Shown here: one piece after another, positions 3,039 to 33,680 of the stretch
Numbering within the stretch: the stretch's first letter is position 1
Layout: each line of letters starts with the position of its first letter
From: an uncultured Gammaproteobacteria bacterium
Lineage (GTDB): Bacteria > Patescibacteriota > Patescibacteriia > 2-12-FULL-60-25
Assembly: GCA_964405175.1 (NCBI GenBank)
Contig: CAYOMV010000003.1
Location: forward strand, 1 to 33,758
Reading direction: 5' to 3'
DNA: 33,758 nt
Notes under the pieces: generated by a model
Database searches by the model: none
Told to the model about the DNA's origin: nothing
The model's input: the letters and a program-made list of their open reading frames with translations, nothing else
Translations under genes and position numbers: made by a program

Positions 3039-4559
3039 TCATGGCCCATCCAATCCCGGGATATAGTCAATTCCCGGTTGTAGTGGAGTGACCACCGTAT
3101 TTCGAGGAGCGGCTCTTGACGGCTTGCGCGGCTTGGGAGGTTCCTCGGGAGTTTTGAGTTCAGCGCTTACACCCGCCTCAACCATTTCCTCTTCCTTAGC
3201 AGGATTTACCGTCGCAACTGACTTTGCCGCCAAAGTCGCCGTCGGCAAGGTTGCGGATGCCTTTGGAAGAGTGCTTACCTTTTCGCTTTTCGATGAATTC
3301 GCGGGAAGTCTCGAGCTTGAGGAAACGGATACGGTAGATGCCGCGGAAGCATTTTGCTTTTGCCATGTTTGGTAGCCAAGATAAAGCACACCGCCCATAA
3401 CGGCAATAGCTAGCGCAATCAGCGAAGACTTCATCGCGGTACCGCTTCTTGAAGAAGGCGCGAGCACAGCTGTGGTTTCAAGGCTAATCTTGGATTGAAC
3501 CCCCGCCGGAGTGGGTGTCGCGGCCATGGTTTGGTCTTCCGGATCAACGTTGAATCCGCGCCCAAACACCACCTTCGGCTCCGGATATTCACTCCTGGAA
3601 ACATGGTCGAGCTCAAGCTGCATCGCGTTCAATTCGCTAAGCACGTCAAGCATATCCTGCGGCCTGTCTTCTTGCTTAAACCGCAAGCAATGCAGTATAA
3701 GCTTCTCGAGCCTCGGCTCAACCTTGTCGCAGAAATCACGGATAGGCAAAGGCACGGCCGTGCCGTTGGCCACCTTGGCCAACACGCTCCGCATGTCTCC
3801 GTTCTCAAAGTTGAAAGCCGTTCTCCCGGTGTACATCTCGTACAAGATACAGCCAAACGCCCAAATATCCGACTGCACGCTTGGGAATCCAAGCGCCGCC
3901 TCCGGAGCCAAGTAAGCGGGCGTTCCCCTTAGCATACCTTCCTGTGTGAGCTTGTAATCACCGGAATTTCGTTCGTCATCATGAAACTTGGAAATACCCA
4001 AGTCCATCAGCTGAACAATCGCCTGAGTTCCGCGGCCTGCCACCAGTATGTTGGATGGCTTTACGTCGCGATGTATCACCCCGGCTCCATGAACAGCCGC
4101 TAAACCAGAACCAGCGCGAAGCGCGTAATGCAAAAGCTCGGGATACGGGATCAAAGTGCCCCGAAGCTTTTCGGACGTGGAAGCCTTTGCCAGCTCTTCT
4201 TGCAAGATCACTTCCAATGTCCTGCCTCCGGAAATAAACGGAAACACGAAATACGGATATAGAGCGGGGCCGTCTTGCAAAATGCCGGCTTGGATCAACG
4301 GAAGTACATCCGTGCCCCGCACTTTTTTATGGACTTCCTTCACCCTCTCGAATCTCTTCTTCTCAGCCGGATCATCCGCTCGCCACAACAATTTGATCGC
4401 TACCAAGCGCTCATCCTTTAGCGACTTGGCTTTGTAAACGATAGCCTCGCCGCCTCCGTCTTGCTCCTTGATGATTTCAAACAGTTCTTTGCCGTCATGT
4501 CCCACCAAAGTCCCCGGGGGGAAGATTTTCTTTTCCGTGTAGCCTCCGCCCAAACTCAT
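3039..4559 (-). CDS. Membrane-anchored Hanks-type Ser/Thr protein kinase with Ser/Pro/Ala-rich extracytoplasmic tail
   Basis: VAIK lysine, HRDVKPSNIL catalytic loop, DLG (DFG variant), GTPAYLAPE. One TM helix LIALAIAVMGGVLYLGY. ATG 4559 is preceded by GAGGAG with a 7-nt spacer; the ORF-track TTG at 4589 is less likely. Confidence 0.85.
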   Translation of the reverse strand: MSLGGGYTEKKIFPPGTLVGHDGKELFEIIKEQDGGGEAIVYKAKSLKDERLVAIKLLWRADDPAEKKRFERVKEVHKKVRGTDVLPLIQAGILQDGPALYPYFVFPFISGGRTLEVILQEELAKASTSEKLRGTLIPYPELLHYALRAGSGLAAVHGAGVIHRDVKPSNILVAGRGTQAIVQLMDLGISKFHDDERNSGDYKLTQEGMLRGTPAYLAPEAALGFPSVQSDIWAFGCILYEMYTGRTAFNFENGDMRSVLAKVANGTAVPLPIRDFCDKVEPRLEKLILHCLRFKQEDRPQDMLDVLSELNAMQLELDHVSRSEYPEPKVVFGRGFNVDPEDQTMAATPTPAGVQSKISLETTAVLAPSSRSGTAMKSSLIALAIAVMGGVLYLGYQTWQKQNASAASTVSVSSSSRLPANSSKSEKVSTLPKASATLPTATLAAKSVATVNPAKEEEMVEAGVSAELKTPEEPPKPRKPSRAAPRNTVVTPLQPGIDYIPGLDGP

Positions 4560-7660: not shown

Positions 7661-7713
7661 AACGCCTCTTATATTGGCGGAAAAAACGACTTTGGTCAAC
7701 TTAACTTACGTCA

Positions 7714-7761
7714 GCCTCTAGCTTCTAGCTACTAGAGGCTAGAGGCTAAAAGCTAAAAGCT
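7714..7761. repeat. Heptamer arrays: GCCTCTA/GCTTCTA, inverted CTAGAGG x2, then CTAAAAG x2
   Basis: Reads gcctcta gcttcta gcta ctagagg ctagagg ctaaaag ctaaaag. The first two blocks are mutually complementary (hairpin). The CTAGARG unit recurs at 17740 and, reverse-complemented, at 33658. Confidence 0.9.
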
Positions 7762-8614: not shown

Positions 8615-9052
<438 letters not shown>

Positions 9053-10032: not shown

Positions 10033-10060
10033 AAACGGATTCTCGTGACAAACGTAATTC
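10033..10060 (+). repeat. 28-nt motif AAACGGATTCTCGTGACAAACGTAATTC, second copy at 33703
   Basis: 24 of 28 identical to 33703-33730 (AAACGGATTCTAGTGATAAACGTGATTT). Both are in intergenic repeat clusters. Confidence 0.7.
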
Positions 10061-10089
10061 TTAATTCATAATTTTTTAATTATAAAGTT

Positions 10090-11079: not shown

Positions 11080-11107
11080 TTGTACATTGCACGTTGTACG
11101 TTGTACA
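11080..11107. repeat. Heptamer array TTGTACA/TTGCACG/TTGTACG/TTGTACA
   Basis: Four phased 7-mers immediately upstream of the 11118 start. Confidence 0.8.
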
Positions 11108-13451: not shown

Positions 13452-14307
13452 ATGGAACAGCTGTTAAGATATTGTTGACTATAACTCTTAACAATGCTGT
13501 TCCATGTCTATATTAACGCACGTCCCATCAAACGCCAAGCTCCGTCAAATATTCACTAAATCAACTTTTGGTCCCAGAATATTCTGTCCAAGATGCTCAT
13601 CAAGTCACATTAAAGTCTCAGAAAACAGATATAGATGCCCCAAATGTAGAAAGCCTTTCAGCTTGACCAGTGTTTCTTGGCTTAGAAATACCAAGTTAGA
13701 TTTAAAGACAATATGGCTGCTTCTCGTTTGTTGGCAGAAGAAAATAGCTTTCAATACAACGGCTGAAATCATAGGTATTTCATCAGTCACAGTCAGAAGA
13801 TGGTACAGGAGATTTCAAGACAACATAGTCTATGAAAGCCCAATATTAAAAGGAATTATTGAAATGGACGAAGCTTTTGTGGGTCGAAGAAGGTATGGAA
13901 ATCAAAAGATTATTCTAGGCGCCTATGAACGAAATTCCAAGAAGATAGTACTTCGTCTTTCACGCAACAGAGATCAAGAAGCAACTGATAGATTTCTTTT
14001 AAGTAACGTTAGTCAGCAAAGTATGGTTTGGACTGACGGAGCCCAGTGTTATGAGGGTATTAATGAGTTCTTTGGCTATCTTCATGCTTCTTGCAATCAC
14101 TCCAAATTCTACTTCGGACCAACCAATCATATTGAATGTGTCTGGTCTGTGTTTAAAAGATACATCAGGAGAACATATCATCACTATCACAAGAAATGGT
14201 TGCCCAATTTACTGCGGGAATTCGAGGCTCGTTGGAACGCTCCTAAAATGTTCGAAAATCCGCTTAACTACCTACAAATATGCTTAATGGTTGTTCCATG
14301 TCGTTGA
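13452..14307 (+). mobile_element. IS1595-family insertion sequence (about 0.85 kb)
   Basis: Single transposase ORF. Terminal inverted repeats ATGGAACAGC (13452-) and GTTGTTCCATG (-14300). An extra inward-facing copy of the end sequence (13486-13503) pairs with the left end. Confidence 0.65.
13504..14307 (+). CDS. IS1595-family (ISXO2-like) DDE transposase
   Basis: N-terminal zinc ribbon CPRC...CPKC, HTH region, then IEMDEAFVG...ILGAYER... and TDGAQCY typical of DDE_Tnp_IS1595. Confidence 0.85.
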   Translation: MSILTHVPSNAKLRQIFTKSTFGPRIFCPRCSSSHIKVSENRYRCPKCRKPFSLTSVSWLRNTKLDLKTIWLLLVCWQKKIAFNTTAEIIGISSVTVRRWYRRFQDNIVYESPILKGIIEMDEAFVGRRRYGNQKIILGAYERNSKKIVLRLSRNRDQEATDRFLLSNVSQQSMVWTDGAQCYEGINEFFGYLHASCNHSKFYFGPTNHIECVWSVFKRYIRRTYHHYHKKWLPNLLREFEARWNAPKMFENPLNYLQICLMVVPCR

Positions 14308-14527
14308 CAAAAGCCCGTCTTTTTAGTATTGACAACTAAAGCATTATTTGCTAAGCCTTACTCATAGGAGGACCTTTATTTTTTAAAAAGTCCTTATGCG
14401 CATAGCAGAAAAAGATTTATACAAGTATACAAATGAAGTATTGGCTTGGATCTTACCCGCCGCAAATCTGGCCCTTGGGATCTACTGCATCGTCTATACC
14501 CTGCAAACCCAAAACATTTGGTAAAAA

Positions 14528-14550
14528 GACTCCTCGCGGAGTTTTTTTTT
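14528..14550 (+). terminator. Orphan hairpin and T9 terminator 36 nt upstream of the transketolase N-subunit start
   Basis: GACTCC (14528-14533) / GGAGTT (14538-14543) followed by a T-run to 14550. No credible CDS ends upstream of it. Confidence 0.55.
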
Positions 14551-14585
14551 ATTTCCTGCCAACCATGTTAAAATACTGCAAAGAT

Positions 14586-15494
14586 ATGAAAACCATTAAA
14601 CAGTTGGAAAAAATCGCCAACCAAATCCGCCAAGACATAATCAACATGCTATTATCCGCAGGCTCCGGCCACTCTGCCGGCCCGCTGGGGATGGCTGATG
14701 TTTTTACCGCGGTTTATTTGGGAGGTGTGGCAAACCTCAACCCCAAAAAGAAAAACGACCCTTCTCGCGACCGTGTCGTGCTCTCAAACGCGCACATCTG
14801 CCCTGTTCTCTACGCAGCCCTCGCTCATGCCGGCTTTATCCCTCACTCCAAGCTAAAAACACTTCGCAAATTCGGCAGCCCCCTGCAGGGCCACTCCAAC
14901 AACCATTACAACAACGGTATCGAAACCTGCGGAGGCCCGTTGGGCCAAGGCCTTTCTCAAGCCTGCGGTATGGCTCTCGCTTCCCGAATCAATACCAAAT
15001 ATCAAATACCAAATGCCAAATCTAAACAGCGTAATACGAAATACGAAATACGAAATTCGAATTATCATACCTGGTGCCTCATGAGCGACGGTGAATTTAA
15101 CGAAGGCCAAACCTGGGAAGCCGTAATGCTGGCCGGCAAATACGACCTACGCGAAGTAACCGCTATAATCGACCGCAACAATATCCAAATCGACGGCTTT
15201 ACGGAAGACGTAATGCCCCTGGAAAACTTCCGCGCCAAACTCGAAGCTAACAATTGGTTCGTTATCGAAGTAGACGGCCACAACATCAGAGAAATTTTAG
15301 ACGCCATGAAAAAAGCCAAAGCCATGGCCGCCAACCCAACCGCAATCATCTGCCACACAATACCGGGTAAAGGGGTCGACTTCATGGAGAATAAATTTGA
15401 ATGGCACGGAAAACCCCCCAACAAAGAAGAGGCCAAACAAGCCCTCCACGACATCCGAACCTTAGGCGGTAAAATTTACAGTGAACACCAATGA
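14586..15494 (+). CDS. Transketolase, N-terminal (TPP/pyrophosphate-binding) subunit
   Basis: Starts MKTIKQLEKIANQIRQDI. GSGHSAGPLG, GPLGQGLS, SDGEFNEGQTWEA, IDRNNIQIDG. The ORF-track start at 14433 lies upstream of a terminator and adds non-family residues. Carries an in-frame repeat insertion. Confidence 0.9.
   Translation: MKTIKQLEKIANQIRQDIINMLLSAGSGHSAGPLGMADVFTAVYLGGVANLNPKKKNDPSRDRVVLSNAHICPVLYAALAHAGFIPHSKLKTLRKFGSPLQGHSNNHYNNGIETCGGPLGQGLSQACGMALASRINTKYQIPNAKSKQRNTKYEIRNSNYHTWCLMSDGEFNEGQTWEAVMLAGKYDLREVTAIIDRNNIQIDGFTEDVMPLENFRAKLEANNWFVIEVDGHNIREILDAMKKAKAMAANPTAIICHTIPGKGVDFMENKFEWHGKPPNKEEAKQALHDIRTLGGKIYSEHQ
14991..15067. repeat. Eleven phased heptamers (AATACCA-type then AATACGA-type) inside the transketolase N-subunit CDS
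   Basis: aatacca aatatca aatacca aatgcca aatctaa acagcgt aatacga aatacga aatacga aattcga attatca. Translated as NTKYQIPNAKSKQRNTKYEIRNSNYH. Confidence 0.9.
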
Positions 15495-15532
15495 TAAAAA
15501 AGATTTTGGATTACTTTGATTTTATACAGTAT

Positions 15533-15574
15533 AGTGATCAGTGAACAGTGAATAGTGGATAGCGATTAGTGAAG
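15533..15574. repeat. Heptamer array AGTGAAC-type (6 copies), left flank of the four-helix-bundle gene
   Basis: agtgatc agtgaac agtgaat agtggat agcgatt agtgaag. Complementary to the array at 15955. Confidence 0.9.
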
Positions 15575-15585
15575 TTATAAAAGAT

Positions 15586-15954
15586 ATGTATATAGAAAAA
15601 TTTGAAGATTTGATAGTCTGGCAAAAAGCTAAAAAACTGAATATCATAATTCACAACTGCATGATAAAAGTAAACGATTTCGGCTATAAGAATCAAATCG
15701 AAAGAGCTCCCATATCAATAATGAACAATATCGCTGAAGGCTTCGACAAACAAACTACTAAAGAATACAAACAATTTCTACATATAGCCAAAGGATCGTG
15801 CAGCGAAGTAAAAAGCATGCTTTATCTGGGACTGGAATACAAATATTTCAATATCGAACAATTTAACGAAGCATACATGTTGACTGAAGAAATTAGTAAA
15901 ATATTATTTAAAATGATTAATTCACTACAACAAAAACTCAACAATAAACCCTAA
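15586..15954 (+). CDS. Four-helix-bundle protein (23S rRNA intervening-sequence protein family)
   Basis: 122 aa. FEDLIVWQKA, ISIMNNIAEGF, F..FL.IAKGSCSEV are the hallmarks of this family as I recall them. Confidence 0.85.
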   Translation: MYIEKFEDLIVWQKAKKLNIIIHNCMIKVNDFGYKNQIERAPISIMNNIAEGFDKQTTKEYKQFLHIAKGSCSEVKSMLYLGLEYKYFNIEQFNEAYMLTEEISKILFKMINSLQQKLNNKP

Positions 15955-15993
15955 TTCACTGTCCACTGTTCACTGTCCCCTGTCCCCTGTCCT
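15955..15993. repeat. Heptamer array TTCACTG/TCCACTG/TCCCCTG (5.5 copies), right flank of the four-helix-bundle gene
   Basis: ttcactg tccactg ttcactg tcccctg tcccctg tcct, then ATG 15994. 15955-15975 is complementary to 15539-15559 at 18 of 21 positions. Confidence 0.9.
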
Positions 15994-16971
15994 ATGAAAC
16001 TATCCCCTCTCAATCCCTACATCCTGTACAAAACCGTAGAAAAAATCCCCACTCGCGATGGCTATGGCGATGCGCTTTTGGAGCTCGGTGAAAGCAATCC
16101 CGACGTCGTAGTTCTTACGGCTGATCTTGCCGAATCCACACGAGCTCAAAAATTTGGGGAAACTTATCCTGAAAGATATATAGAATGCGGCGTGGCCGAA
16201 CAAAACATGATGGGTGTTGCAGCCGGTTTGGCATTATCCGGTAAAATCCCTTTTGTCTCATCCTACGCCGTCTTCTCCCCGGGCCGCAGTTGGGATCAGC
16301 TCCGTGTATCCGTCTGCTACAGCAAAGCAAATGTTAAAATAGCCGGCGCGCATACAGGTGTATCGGTTGGCCCGGACGGCGCCACGCATCAAGCGTTGGA
16401 AGACATGGCTATCACGCGCGTTATCCCGGATATCATAGTTTGCGCGCCCTGCGATGCGGAAGAAACACGCAAATGCACAATTGCGGCAGCCAAACACAAA
16501 GGCCCTGTCTACTTCCGCTTCGCCCGCGAAAAAACCCCTGTCATCACAACTAAAAAAACACCTTTCACGTTTGGCAAAGCTTATGTCTGCCGTGAAGGTT
16601 ATGATGTAACAATAATCGCCTGCGGCCCCCTGCTCCACGAGGCTTTATTGGCCGCCGAAGAACTCGCCAAAAATCACATCGAAGCCGAAGTCATCAACTC
16701 ACACACCATCAAGCCATTGGACGGTAAAACAATCAAAGAGTCCTTAAATAAAACAGCCTGTGCCGTCACCATAGAAGAGCATCAAGTCACAGGCGGATTG
16801 CACGGCGCTGTCGCCGAGTTTTGCGCGCAAAATATCCCGGTCCCCATCGAAGCCATCGGCATGCCCAACACCTTCGGCCAATCCGGCGAACCGGATGAGC
16901 TCATCACTTATTACGGAATGCGAGCCAAAGAAATCGTCAAAGCCGCCAAGAAAGCAATTAAAAGAAAATAG
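15994..16971 (+). CDS. Transketolase, C-terminal (pyrimidine-binding plus C-terminal domain) subunit
   Basis: 325 aa. TRDGYGDAL, ECGVAEQNM.GVAAGLA, GPDGATHQALEDMA, HTIKPLD. Confidence 0.9.
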   Translation: MKLSPLNPYILYKTVEKIPTRDGYGDALLELGESNPDVVVLTADLAESTRAQKFGETYPERYIECGVAEQNMMGVAAGLALSGKIPFVSSYAVFSPGRSWDQLRVSVCYSKANVKIAGAHTGVSVGPDGATHQALEDMAITRVIPDIIVCAPCDAEETRKCTIAAAKHKGPVYFRFAREKTPVITTKKTPFTFGKAYVCREGYDVTIIACGPLLHEALLAAEELAKNHIEAEVINSHTIKPLDGKTIKESLNKTACAVTIEEHQVTGGLHGAVAEFCAQNIPVPIEAIGMPNTFGQSGEPDELITYYGMRAKEIVKAAKKAIKRK

Positions 16972-17739: not shown

Positions 17740-17770
17740 CTAGAAGCTAGAGGCTAGAAGCTAGAGGCTA
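17740..17770. repeat. Heptamer array CTAGAAG/CTAGAGG x4.4
   Basis: ctagaag ctagagg ctagaag ctagagg cta. Confidence 0.9.
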
Positions 17771-18816: not shown

Positions 18817-18851
18817 CTCTTTGCACTTTGTACTTTATACTTTATACTGAT
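18817..18851. repeat. Heptamer array CACTTTG/TACTTTA (5 copies) that also supplies promoter-like hexamers
   Basis: ctctttg cactttg tacttta tacttta tactgat. Contains TTGCAC (18821-18826), a 16-nt spacer and TATACT (18843-18848), 9 nt before ATG 18858. Confidence 0.85.
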
Positions 18852-20577: not shown

Positions 20578-20695
20578 CTCGGCTTCCCTTCCTACCGTAC
20601 GAATTACGAATCTTGAACGAATTACGAATCAATTTCAAAGCCATTCGTAATTCGCGCTTATTCGTAATTCGTAAAGTGAGAAGGGAATAATCCCA
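20578..20695. repeat. Composite palindromic element, copy 1 (118 nt)
   Basis: Outer stem TTCCCTTC/GAAGGGAA. Inner arms are TACGAAT heptamer repeats facing ATTCGTA repeats. Ends 43 nt before ATG 20738. Confidence 0.85.
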
Positions 20696-20737
20696 CGCAC
20701 CTCAACCCCGCCCCAAAAGGGGCAAAGGAGATTGAAA

Positions 20738-21445
20738 ATGAATCGTTCAACCATGTTTGTATCTTGTTTCTTGGTAGTATTTGTATATATTTTATGTGGC
20801 TGCTCCGCAAAGCAACCCCATGAGGCTCATACGGTGATCCGAGTGAGCGCAGAACCGAGATCGGAATATCCTTTATTTGAAGAGGACCCACCTACCTGGG
20901 TAACGCACTGCATTTTGAAAAGCGAATTGAAACCACCGAGTTTCAATTTGCTGAGCTACCCTCAAATGAACCTGGAGACGCAGATAGAACAAGAAACACG
21001 GCTTCAATTCCGTGTCCCAGAATACCAAGAGAATGGCATTCGTATCGATCCCGAGCTTTGGCAAGAAATGTATGTTGGCCGTATCATAGGCAACTTCTAC
21101 ATTTCAAATATCAATAAAAAGGCCAAAGCTGCAATGCAATTAATGAGCAATCAACAGAATCTTAGGTGGTATGAAATAGCGCCGAGGTCATATAAAAGCT
21201 CCTTTATTGGATTGCTTTCCGCTCGCACTGCGCATGGAGAGATACACGGAGTCTTTAGCGACTTAAATGCGCACGAAGAATGCCGAGAAAACTTCCGTTA
21301 CTTATTCGATTTGGATGAGCTAGACTATAAAGGCAAGCTCTTCAGAAACAACGCCGGAATGACCGGCTTGTTGAGCTTTCAGCCCGAATATGTCGAACTT
21401 ATCCTACCTGGAAGCGGACCGATCTGCGTCCAGGTTAATTCCTAA
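20738..21445 (+). CDS. Putative lipoprotein (235 aa), no known domain
   Basis: AAAGGAG RBS 7 nt upstream. MNRSTMFVSCFLVVFVYILCGCS has a lipobox-like LCGC. The 5' end is shared with 22234. Confidence 0.6.
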   Translation: MNRSTMFVSCFLVVFVYILCGCSAKQPHEAHTVIRVSAEPRSEYPLFEEDPPTWVTHCILKSELKPPSFNLLSYPQMNLETQIEQETRLQFRVPEYQENGIRIDPELWQEMYVGRIIGNFYISNINKKAKAAMQLMSNQQNLRWYEIAPRSYKSSFIGLLSARTAHGEIHGVFSDLNAHEECRENFRYLFDLDELDYKGKLFRNNAGMTGLLSFQPEYVELILPGSGPICVQVNS

Positions 21446-21479: not shown

Positions 21480-21578
21480 CTCGGCTTCCCTTCCCACCAT
21501 ACGAATTACGAATCTTGAACGAATTACGAATCGTTTCAAAGCCATTCGTAATTCGTAAAGTGAGAAGGGAATAACCCA
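21480..21578. repeat. Composite palindromic element, copy 2 (99 nt)
   Basis: Colinear with copy 1 apart from a 17-nt deletion in the 3' arm and a few substitutions. Ends 35 nt before the 21613 start. Confidence 0.85.
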
Positions 21579-24070: not shown

Positions 24071-24138
24071 GAAGTCCGTAGGACGTAGTGGGGTAATCGG
24101 CTCGCCCCTCGAAGTCCGTAGGACGTAGTGGGGTAATC
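24071..24138. repeat. 28-nt direct repeat x2 (GAAGTCCGTAGGACGTAGTGGGGTAATC) with 12-nt spacer
   Basis: Perfect copies at 24071-24098 and 24111-24138. Each contains the hairpin GTCC-GTA-GGAC. Confidence 0.9.
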
Positions 24139-24153
24139 ATTAATCGGTAATTG

Positions 24154-24181
24154 ATATTTGGTATTTGGTATTTAATGTATT
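24154..24181. repeat. Heptamer array ATATTTG/GTATTTG (4 copies), reverse complement of the ACCAAAT units in the transketolase N-subunit gene
   Basis: atatttg gtatttg gtattta atgtatt. Abuts the stop codon of the DUF2207 gene. Confidence 0.85.
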
Positions 24182-28673: not shown

Positions 28674-28736
28674 AGATACCAGCCGCCAGATGCAAGATAC
28701 TAAATAATAGATAATAGATAATAAATAATAAATGTT
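28674..28736. repeat. Heptamer array AGATACC to AGATAAT to AAATAAT (9 copies)
   Basis: agatacc agccgcc agatgca agatact aaataat agataat agataat aaataat aaatgtt, then ATG 28739. Confidence 0.85.
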
Positions 28737-33593: not shown

Positions 33594-33642
33594 GATCATT
33601 ATTTATTATTTGTTATTTCTGATTTGTTATTTATTATTTAAT
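33594..33642. repeat. Heptamer array ATTTATT/ATTTGTT/ATTTCTG (7 copies)
   Basis: gatcatt atttatt atttgtt atttctg atttgtt atttatt atttaat. Reverse complement resembles the AATAAAT-type units at 28702-28736. Confidence 0.85.
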
Positions 33643-33657
33643 ATCTGAAAGTTTTTT

Positions 33658-33680
33658 AGCCTCTAGCCTCTAGCTTCTAG
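33658..33680. repeat. Heptamer array AGCCTCT/AGCTTCT (3.3 copies), reverse complement of CTAGAGG/CTAGAAG
   Basis: agcctct agcctct agcttct ag. Confidence 0.9.

Follow-up and report, generated by a model that had tools for sequence, protein, structure and literature searches.

An rRNA-intervening-sequence-type cassette in a protein-coding operon: a four-helix-bundle gene bracketed by inverted heptamer arrays between two transketolase subunit genes

The two subunit genes of a split transketolase, tktN and tktC, lie in the same orientation on a 33,758-nucleotide stretch of DNA (the whole of contig CAYOMV010000003.1, hereafter the window), and the locus raises the question of why a third gene, enclosed by two arrays of seven-nucleotide repeats that are reverse complements of each other, stands between them. 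The gap is 499 bp long, the tktN open reading frame (ORF) ending at 15494 and the tktC ORF starting at 15994, and comparison with related tkt loci indicates that a single cassette (15495..15993, + strand) fills the complete spacer from the tktN stop to the tktC start. All parts of the cassette are on the + strand: a 5′ arm of about seven tandem heptamers with the unit xxAGTGA (15524..15573), a gene for a 122-aa four-helix-bundle protein (15586..15954), and a 3′ arm of about 5.4 tandem heptamers, TTCACTG/TCCACTG/TCCCCTG (15955..15992). The unit of the 3′ arm is the reverse complement of that of the 5′ arm, and the 3′ arm begins directly after the stop codon and finishes 1 nt short of the tktC ATG. 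The reading favoured here, which we regard as rather probable, is that the gap is one complete cassette of the type found as intervening sequences (IVSs) in rRNA, and that it would be co-transcribed with its neighbours, pair its arms, be cut by RNase III and encode a protein that binds its own stem.

The complementarity of the two arms is apparent in several scans. An earlier interpretation made from the letters alone (the sequence-only reading) had described the 499-bp gap with its 122-aa gene, as the ORF coordinates confirm, and had matched 15539-15559 (cagtgaacagtgaatagtgga) to the reverse complement of 15955-15975 (ttcactgtccactgttcactg) with 18 of 21 positions identical, a count that is exact on direct reading. 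Inverted-repeat scans returned arms of 21 nt (15533-15553/15954-15974, 90% complementary) and of 38 nt (15528-15565/15956-15993, 74% complementary), and Tandem Repeats Finder placed period-7 arrays at 15531-15573 (6.1 copies) and 15957-15992 (5.1 copies). The premise that tktN and tktC are normally adjacent proved roughly right: among 70 Patescibacteria loci holding both genes the gap is at most 100 nt in 39, but it exceeds 300 nt in 19, which have other genes inside it.

Membership of the 122-aa product in the IVS-protein family was borne out by homology search and by fold comparison. The protein matches PF05635 with E=1.7e-30 (105.8 bits, cutoff 33.8) and TIGR02436 with E=2.4e-27 (95.3 bits, cutoff 24), and its AF2 (AlphaFold) model, computed as a monomer, consists of four helices with a pLDDT (predicted local distance difference test) of 95.8. 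In a Foldseek search the model was closest to 2GSC (template modelling score, TM, 0.85; root-mean-square deviation 1.1 Å), followed by 2RLD and then by the Avd structure 4DWL (TM 0.76); 2GSC and 2RLD are pentameric S23p structures, both of which were superposed on the model, and phmmer related the protein to 2GSC at E=7.5e-9. The cassette protein is Avd-like and probably pentameric and RNA-binding. In the clade of cassette proteins that includes the window copy, the proportion of differing synonymous sites is 0.66-0.82 (synonymous sites are saturated) and that of non-synonymous sites 0.11-0.20, with a dN/dS of ~0.09 where it is computable; the protein is thus kept by purifying selection and is therefore functional. 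An exact-protein look-up has no record of the 122-aa sequence, PADLOC returned a non-significant match only, and the PF05635 family does not appear to be phage-borne, because viral contigs gave only one weak relative.

Inverted-array flanks are the rule across this gene family and no local accident. The comparison drew on 80 metagenome loci with relatives of the cassette protein, and a profile search of the window and the tkt loci found eight family members (window copy included). Sufficient flank was available for 78 genes; in these, the 80 nt 5′ of the gene, compared with the reverse complement of the 80 nt 3′ of it, gave a median Smith-Waterman score of 30.5, against a median of 14 for both the direct orientation and shuffles. 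Scores above the 99th percentile of shuffles were reached by 56 of these genes, a share of 72% that is not a random sample of PF05635 because the metagenome-derived loci belong mostly to one subfamily, 45-60% identical to the query. The same threshold was passed by 8% in the direct orientation and by 13 of 701 control ORFs of at least 100 aa from the same loci (1.9%; defined as ORFs, the controls have imprecise starts), giving a Fisher odds ratio of 135 (p=2e-54) for family versus control genes. The sequence-only reading would have been refuted by family copies lacking inverted flanks, and the shares of 72% and 1.9% count in its favour on this point. When the relatives were clustered at 70% identity, 19 of 26 clusters had inverted flanks, and tandem periodicity in the family flanks was enriched at periods 7, 8 and 9 only.

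These counts bear directly on the simplest rival, namely that two ordinary intergenic heptamer arrays happen to bracket an ordinary small gene as reverse complements. Its appeal lies in the abundance of such arrays, since the window has 17 tandem arrays of period 7, many of them just 5′ of start codons, as compared with 0-1 for each of periods 5, 6, 8 and 9; it follows that arrays as such are not special at tktN/tktC, and that the matched inverted pair is. The units of the other arrays differ from those of the cassette and among themselves, the family and its controls stand at 72% and 1.9%, and empty insertion sites (described below) are free of arrays. Coincidence, and with it the notion of generic arrays, is refuted by the flank counts and the array-free empty sites, and we give it next to no credence. 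The control genes that do have inverted flanks are other small, mostly nuclease-fold genes: in Patescibacteria they include PDDEXK_3 genes with inverted 8-9-nt arrays (L049 8126-8536, L031 8037-8426), DUF559 genes with a palindromic hairpin on either side (L030 4095-4445, L031 2459-2824) and a GIY-YIG gene with inverted flanks (L063 4988-5338).

The array unit varies by lineage (AAAGTTCAT, AAAGTCG, CAGTGAA, AGTCCTAGTACTT, TAGCGTA, TTCGGTT and GGGAAAA are examples), and within any single cassette both arms match despite these lineage-specific units. A universal arm motif was considered and rejected, as AAAGT/AGT dominates one large group and is absent from the GGGAAAA, TTCGGTT and GACAGAG groups. 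Over 56 cassettes the similarity of the arms in 5-mers follows protein identity (Mantel r=0.51, p<=0.0005), a correlation confounded by shared descent, and in the window clade the arrays hold the xxAGTGA unit over the same divergence that saturates synonymous sites.

Such conservation and co-variation would also be expected if the protein were a sequence-specific binder of the heptamers, as DNA or as single-stranded RNA, with the arrays serving as operators through which the cassette is autoregulated and modulates translation or transcription of the downstream gene, and with the other heptamer arrays of the genome as further targets. This explanation could draw on the position of most other window arrays, 1-20 nt 5′ of a start codon, and TAACTGA repeats in Beggiatoaceae have likewise been reported before start codons (PMC4679880). 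In a comparison of tkt loci L001-L080 and the window, non-flanking 7-9-nt arrays were also denser in family-bearing loci (0.24/kb versus 0.077/kb, Mann-Whitney p=0.0008), an association confounded by phylogeny and based on only 8 family-bearing loci. The other window arrays have units unlike that of the cassette, however, and operators alone leave the inverted arrangement unexplained, so that we consider this account improbable.

The remaining arrays of the window are described here for completeness. Examples are located at 2959-2994, 10055-10073, 11080-11106, 17740-17770, 18819-18848, 24134-24173, 28697-28733 and 33598-33680. Heptamer arrays also lie in frame within genes, inside tktN (14991-15061), in a loop whose length is variable between relatives, and inside rpiB (8771-8804), where they encode RDTRYEIRDTRS. 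Gene-less hairpins composed of two inverted heptamer arrays occur in the window at 7713-7761 (AGCCTCT/AGAGGCT), with a unit that recurs at 17740-17770 and 33657-33680, and in locus L014 at 3850-3990; they may be ORF-less counterparts of the cassette. An imperfect palindrome of ~100 nt made of ACGAATT arrays is present in two direct copies (20584-20687 and 21486-21571), which flank a 237-aa ORF (20732-21445) that has no Pfam match.

The junctions of tktN and tktC in related genomes were compared, as the sequence-only reading had suggested, and empty, orthologous, swapped and independent states were all found. One of the closest relatives (L001) has an empty spacer of 45 nt without arrays. Orthologous cassettes occupy the junction in L003, L161/L162 and L163, with proteins 71-81% identical and xxAGTGA-type arrays, and the cassette of L002 encodes a protein that is 50% identical and has different arrays. 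An independent insertion at the same junction is found in a Doudnabacteria genome (L063), with a protein 32% identical. In L163 a second array (CTAGGACTAAG-type, 700-760) lies 3′ of the CACTGA-type array and resembles the arms of the L002 cassette; it may be a trace of successive occupancy.

A second set of filled and empty sites is provided by an operon of two Nostoc strains (L164/L167), in which the flanking proteins are 92-97% identical and two cassettes, with proteins 38% identical, occupy two different 3-nt stop/start spacers whose empty counterparts (TAGgttATG and TAAtttATG) are without arrays. In L167 the inverted repeat extends to the extreme ends of the insert (ATCAG...CTGAT). Because the empty spacers lack arrays, the arrays arrive together with the gene, and insertion takes place at the stop/start junction; a pre-existing hairpin as the target was rejected in the cases that could be checked, namely the Nostoc spacers and that of L001. 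The arrays are thus part of the cassette and not of the site it enters, and gain, loss and exchange of the cassette at stop/start junctions of co-directional genes involve gene and arrays together, in support of the earlier proposal of a portable cassette inside operons. At neither the tkt junction nor the Nostoc operon was a target-site duplication visible between filled and empty sites, and there is no transposase or recombinase within the cassette.

Further members of the family point to a wide range of hosts and operons. One separates cas6 from cas4 in a type I-D CRISPR-Cas operon (L165, Anabaena sp. 90 pANA02, 1201-1569), and a suf operon has a cassette inserted between sufD and sufS. Plasmids searched with tblastn yielded family members from Nostoc, Anabaena, Calothrix, Riemerella and Azospirillum, and carriers of the cassette comprise Patescibacteria, Cyanobacteriota and Pseudomonadota, together with a Bacteroidota example that is a record filed as a Riemerella plasmid. 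The exact proteins P0020 and P0060 have one genomic context each, so that the ends of the cassette could not be defined from differing contexts. In the loci of P0060 (L180-L189) the protein is identical in all samples, yet each arm varies in length by complete 7-nt units: the upstream array has 10, 11 or 12 of them, and the downstream array differs by one CTAGGGA unit. The arrays therefore change copy number in 7-nt steps.

How would such an insert behave in a transcript? The suggestion that the cassette forms the loop of a long stem is supported as a prediction: in both the minimum-free-energy and the centroid folds of 15495-16000 the arrays are paired with each other, leaving the ORF as the loop that the arm-arm helix closes. 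The duplex energy of the window flanks is -39.3 kcal/mol, compared with -18.0 +/- 3.8 for shuffles (z = -5.7), and z-scores of -3 to -8 were obtained in 11 cassettes, among them the rRNA cassette described below. The predicted helix is imperfect, with ~35 pairs in the core arms, 45-49 with wider flanks, and an uninterrupted run of 18 bp. No terminator was found on the + strand in the tktN/tktC gap. Among the related loci, the upstream neighbour is co-directional with the cassette gene in 65 of 69, more often than the 83% background (p=0.006), and co-directionality of the downstream neighbour is not enriched over background in the same set. In 52 of 56 loci purines predominate in the 5′ arm on the sense strand (the purine fraction is 0.70 in the window cassette), a figure inflated by shared descent.

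On the favoured reading, the cassette would be co-transcribed with tktN and tktC, and its arms are predicted to pair into an imperfect helix in the tktN-tktC transcript with the ORF in the loop. RNase III, by analogy with the rRNA IVSs of Coxiella and Leptospira, may then cut the arm helix, which would release the mRNA of the cassette and part the tktN message from the tktC message; the insert would thereby be non-polar and could be tolerated inside an essential operon. The protein, as the Avd-RNA structure suggests, probably binds its own cognate stem.

Several observations weigh against this scheme, in addition to the subfamily bias of the flank test and the shared descent behind the Mantel correlation and the purine polarity of the 5′ arm. 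The stems show no excess of G·U wobble, with 33 versus 41 wobble-compatible mismatches, and no advantage of the sense strand in duplex energy (47 sense versus 31 antisense, p=0.40). The 3′ arm abuts the tktC start codon, and an uncleaved stem is therefore expected to hinder tktC translation. A -10-like hexamer, TATAAA, lies 4 nt 5′ of the ATG of the cassette gene (15576..15581, + strand) and could, speculatively, be the cassette's own promoter for a leaderless mRNA, which makes an independent, possibly leaderless, cassette transcript possible; a two-hexamer promoter scan did not pick it up. A Shine-Dalgarno-like motif precedes only one of 21 checked starts in the window, and at several a TATAAT-like hexamer stands 5-10 nt 5′ of the ATG, a combination that suggests leaderless mRNAs.

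The G·U result neither favours nor rules against an RNA stem. As it provides no strand-specific signal, the data suit a DNA-level inverted repeat equally as well as a double-stranded RNA substrate, and although the arms fold together, RNase III cleavage rests on analogy. The arrays could accordingly be the ends of a purely DNA-level element, either terminal inverted repeats or ends with multiple protein-binding sites, serving transposition, homing or recombination through a hairpin or cruciform, and the RNA stem would then be incidental and unprocessed. The symmetric complementarity, the inverted repeat of L167 that runs to the extreme ends of its insert, the precision of the insertions and the co-variation of array and protein are all in keeping with this explanation, as are the recurrence of gene-less array hairpins (7713-7761 and 20584-20687/21486-21571) and the existence of cassettes of the same build that carry nuclease genes (PDDEXK_3, GIY-YIG and DUF559). 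It is at odds with the lack of a transposase or recombinase in the cassette, with the lack of a visible target-site duplication and with the consistent polarity of the arrays relative to the gene; moreover, the homologous rRNA elements have been shown experimentally to be cut in the stem by RNase III, and Avd, the best-understood homologue of the protein, binds RNA. Taken together, a purely DNA-level element seems unlikely, though less so than the operator account, and movement as DNA is in any case compatible with the RNA model, since the cassette must move as DNA somehow. The earlier view of a portable hairpin cassette acting at the RNA level thus stands with regard to family, predicted stem, IVS architecture and portability, but its RNA-level part drew no signal from the G·U test.

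The transketolase genes themselves place the window in Patescibacteria, near Candidatus Uhrbacteria, and a contig of an Uhrbacteria metagenome-assembled genome matches tktC at 90% identity. The longest ORF of tktN, the N-terminal subunit, spans 14433..15494 on the + strand (PF00456, E=9.6e-54), and the gene tktC, for the C-terminal subunit, 15994..16971 on the + strand (PF02779, E=8.1e-45; PF02780, E=8.2e-32). Alignment to tktN homologues begins at about query residue 52, and a terminator-like hairpin at 14523-14548 falls inside the longest tktN ORF, so that the real start is probably near 14565 or 14586. A gene for an IS1595-family (ISXO2-like) transposase lies at 13504-14307, ~130 nt 5′ of the longest tktN ORF and 1.2 kb 5′ of the cassette, and no evidence was found that ties its presence to the cassette. 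The window yielded no tRNA genes and no Rfam match at gathering thresholds, rRNA included, and 15400-16100 gave none at E<=1. Other occupants of the tktN/tktC gap (DUF2339, DUF4349, small unknown ORFs and one PDDEXK_3) were rejected as equivalents of the cassette, being without inverted flanks. In Patescibacteria, co-directional occupants include DUF4349 genes (L007, L018) and DUF2339 genes (L045, L048, L049, L055, L078), both of which encode membrane proteins, and the gap of L049 has a PDDEXK_3 gene at 3634-3993.

Intervening sequences have been seen as a peculiarity of rRNA genes; on the present evidence, the rRNA IVS looks like one of the landing sites of a far more widespread cassette, which also lives between the cistrons of ordinary operons (those of transketolase, suf and type I-D cas, and an operon on a Nostoc plasmid). 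Two threads are joined in this way, that of the S23p/Avd-like IVS ORF, which has had no known role, and that of heptamer arrays, which have been catalogued for decades without a function. Were the stem processed, a selfish gene could sit in an essential operon without polarity, and the cassette would constitute a natural, portable RNA-processing module. There are also practical consequences, as gene callers extend neighbouring ORFs into the arrays, and as the family can look associated with CRISPR adaptation genes simply through invading those operons. A large clustering study lists '23S rRNA IVP' among CRISPR-adaptation-associated domains (PMC10910872), and the cas6/cas4 insertion in Anabaena sp. 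90 may explain that entry.

A bolder version, which we think doubtful and offer as speculation, is that PF05635 cassettes are pan-bacterial, autonomous 'messenger IVSs', in other words selfish genes carried along in host transcripts inside an RNase III stem of their own making. The Avd-like protein would recognise its cognate array stem and drive copying of the cassette into new stop/start junctions, perhaps via an RNA intermediate and a reverse transcriptase acting in trans, echoing the flanking duplex of the RNA of diversity-generating retroelements (DGRs). The heptamer arrays of cyanobacteria (short tandemly repeated repetitive sequences, STRRs), Xanthomonas, Beggiatoaceae, Bacteroidota and Patescibacteria might then be footprints, gene-less derivatives or targets of such cassettes.

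With regard to known systems, the cassette resembles miniature inverted-repeat transposable elements and the repetitive extragenic palindromes and interspersed mosaic elements of bacteria (MITEs and REP-BIME) in being small and intergenic with inverted ends, and in having gene-less copies (window 7713-7761; L014). It differs from them in that its ends are tandem arrays of variable unit, that it carries a conserved non-transposase gene and that target-site duplications are not visible; we know of no cognate transposase. The early region of phage T7 has intercistronic processing hairpins for RNase III that are short, non-mobile and without a gene in the loop. There, as in the cassette, a double-stranded stem lies between cistrons of one polycistronic RNA and would split the messages apart, with cleavage being hypothetical in the present case.

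Genome-wide heptamer arrays (the STRRs of cyanobacteria, GGGAATC in Xanthomonas, GGGGA(C/T)T in Nostoc and TAACTGA in Beggiatoaceae) share with the cassette arms their intergenic tandem 7-mers, their frequent position beside start or stop codons and their variable copy number. The cassette differs in that its arrays form a matched, inverted pair around members of one particular gene family, PF05635, and travel with the gene. Convergent heptamer pairs able to form stem-loops have been noted in Xanthomonas, and the papers on these arrays give no function and make no mention of S23 (PMC4692102, PMC4679880).

Avd, the accessory protein of DGRs (PDB 4DWL, 8UB7), has the same fold as the cassette protein and belongs to the same Pfam family, with a sequence identity of only ~9%. 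It binds an RNA stem-loop with all five protomers, and DGR RNA contains a duplex between sequences flanking the template, whereas the duplex of the window cassette brackets the protein's own gene. Identity as a DGR was rejected, as no reverse transcriptase domain is present in the window ORFs scanned, and general repeat scans of the window, none of them directed at template and variable repeats (TR/VR), turned up no such pair.

Already known, then, are S23p ORFs in rRNA IVSs (with heptamers in Coxiella), their homology to Avd, and heptamer arrays as an unexplained genomic feature. Full-text literature searches found no link of PF05635 genes outside rRNA with inverted arrays or operon-embedded cassettes, and, as far as those searches reach, an rRNA-IVS-type cassette living in mRNA operons is what is new here. 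The closest parallel remains the IVSs of 23S rRNA in Coxiella burnetii, Leptospira, Brucella and Azospirillum, which are transcribed within the host transcript and have PF05635/S23p in the loop, complementary termini as a long stem and, in Coxiella and Azospirillum, tandem heptamers in the arm. In Azospirillum lipoferum 4B (AZO_p2) the family copy lies inside the 23S rRNA gene (Rfam LSU match of 2150 bits), between LSU model positions 1068 and 1360, and its ORF is bracketed by inverted GACAGAG/GACGGAT heptamer arrays. The Coxiella IVS has a terminal stem of 28 bp and 2-3 tandem GACAGAT repeats, of strain-variable copy number, ahead of the S23p ATG, and RNase III cleaves it where the first repeat begins (PMC4990558). 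The resemblance to rRNA IVS architecture noted in the sequence-only reading is borne out by both. The ORF of the Coxiella IVS is reported to be decaying and probably untranslated, in contrast to the window ORF, which is under purifying selection, and 23S rRNA IVSs such as that of Coxiella are cut by RNase III, a step that would apply to the window cassette by analogy. Collectively, these comparisons show that the window cassette shares its parts and their order with an experimentally processed IVS, but is placed between two protein-coding genes of an mRNA operon and not in a helix of 16S or 23S rRNA.
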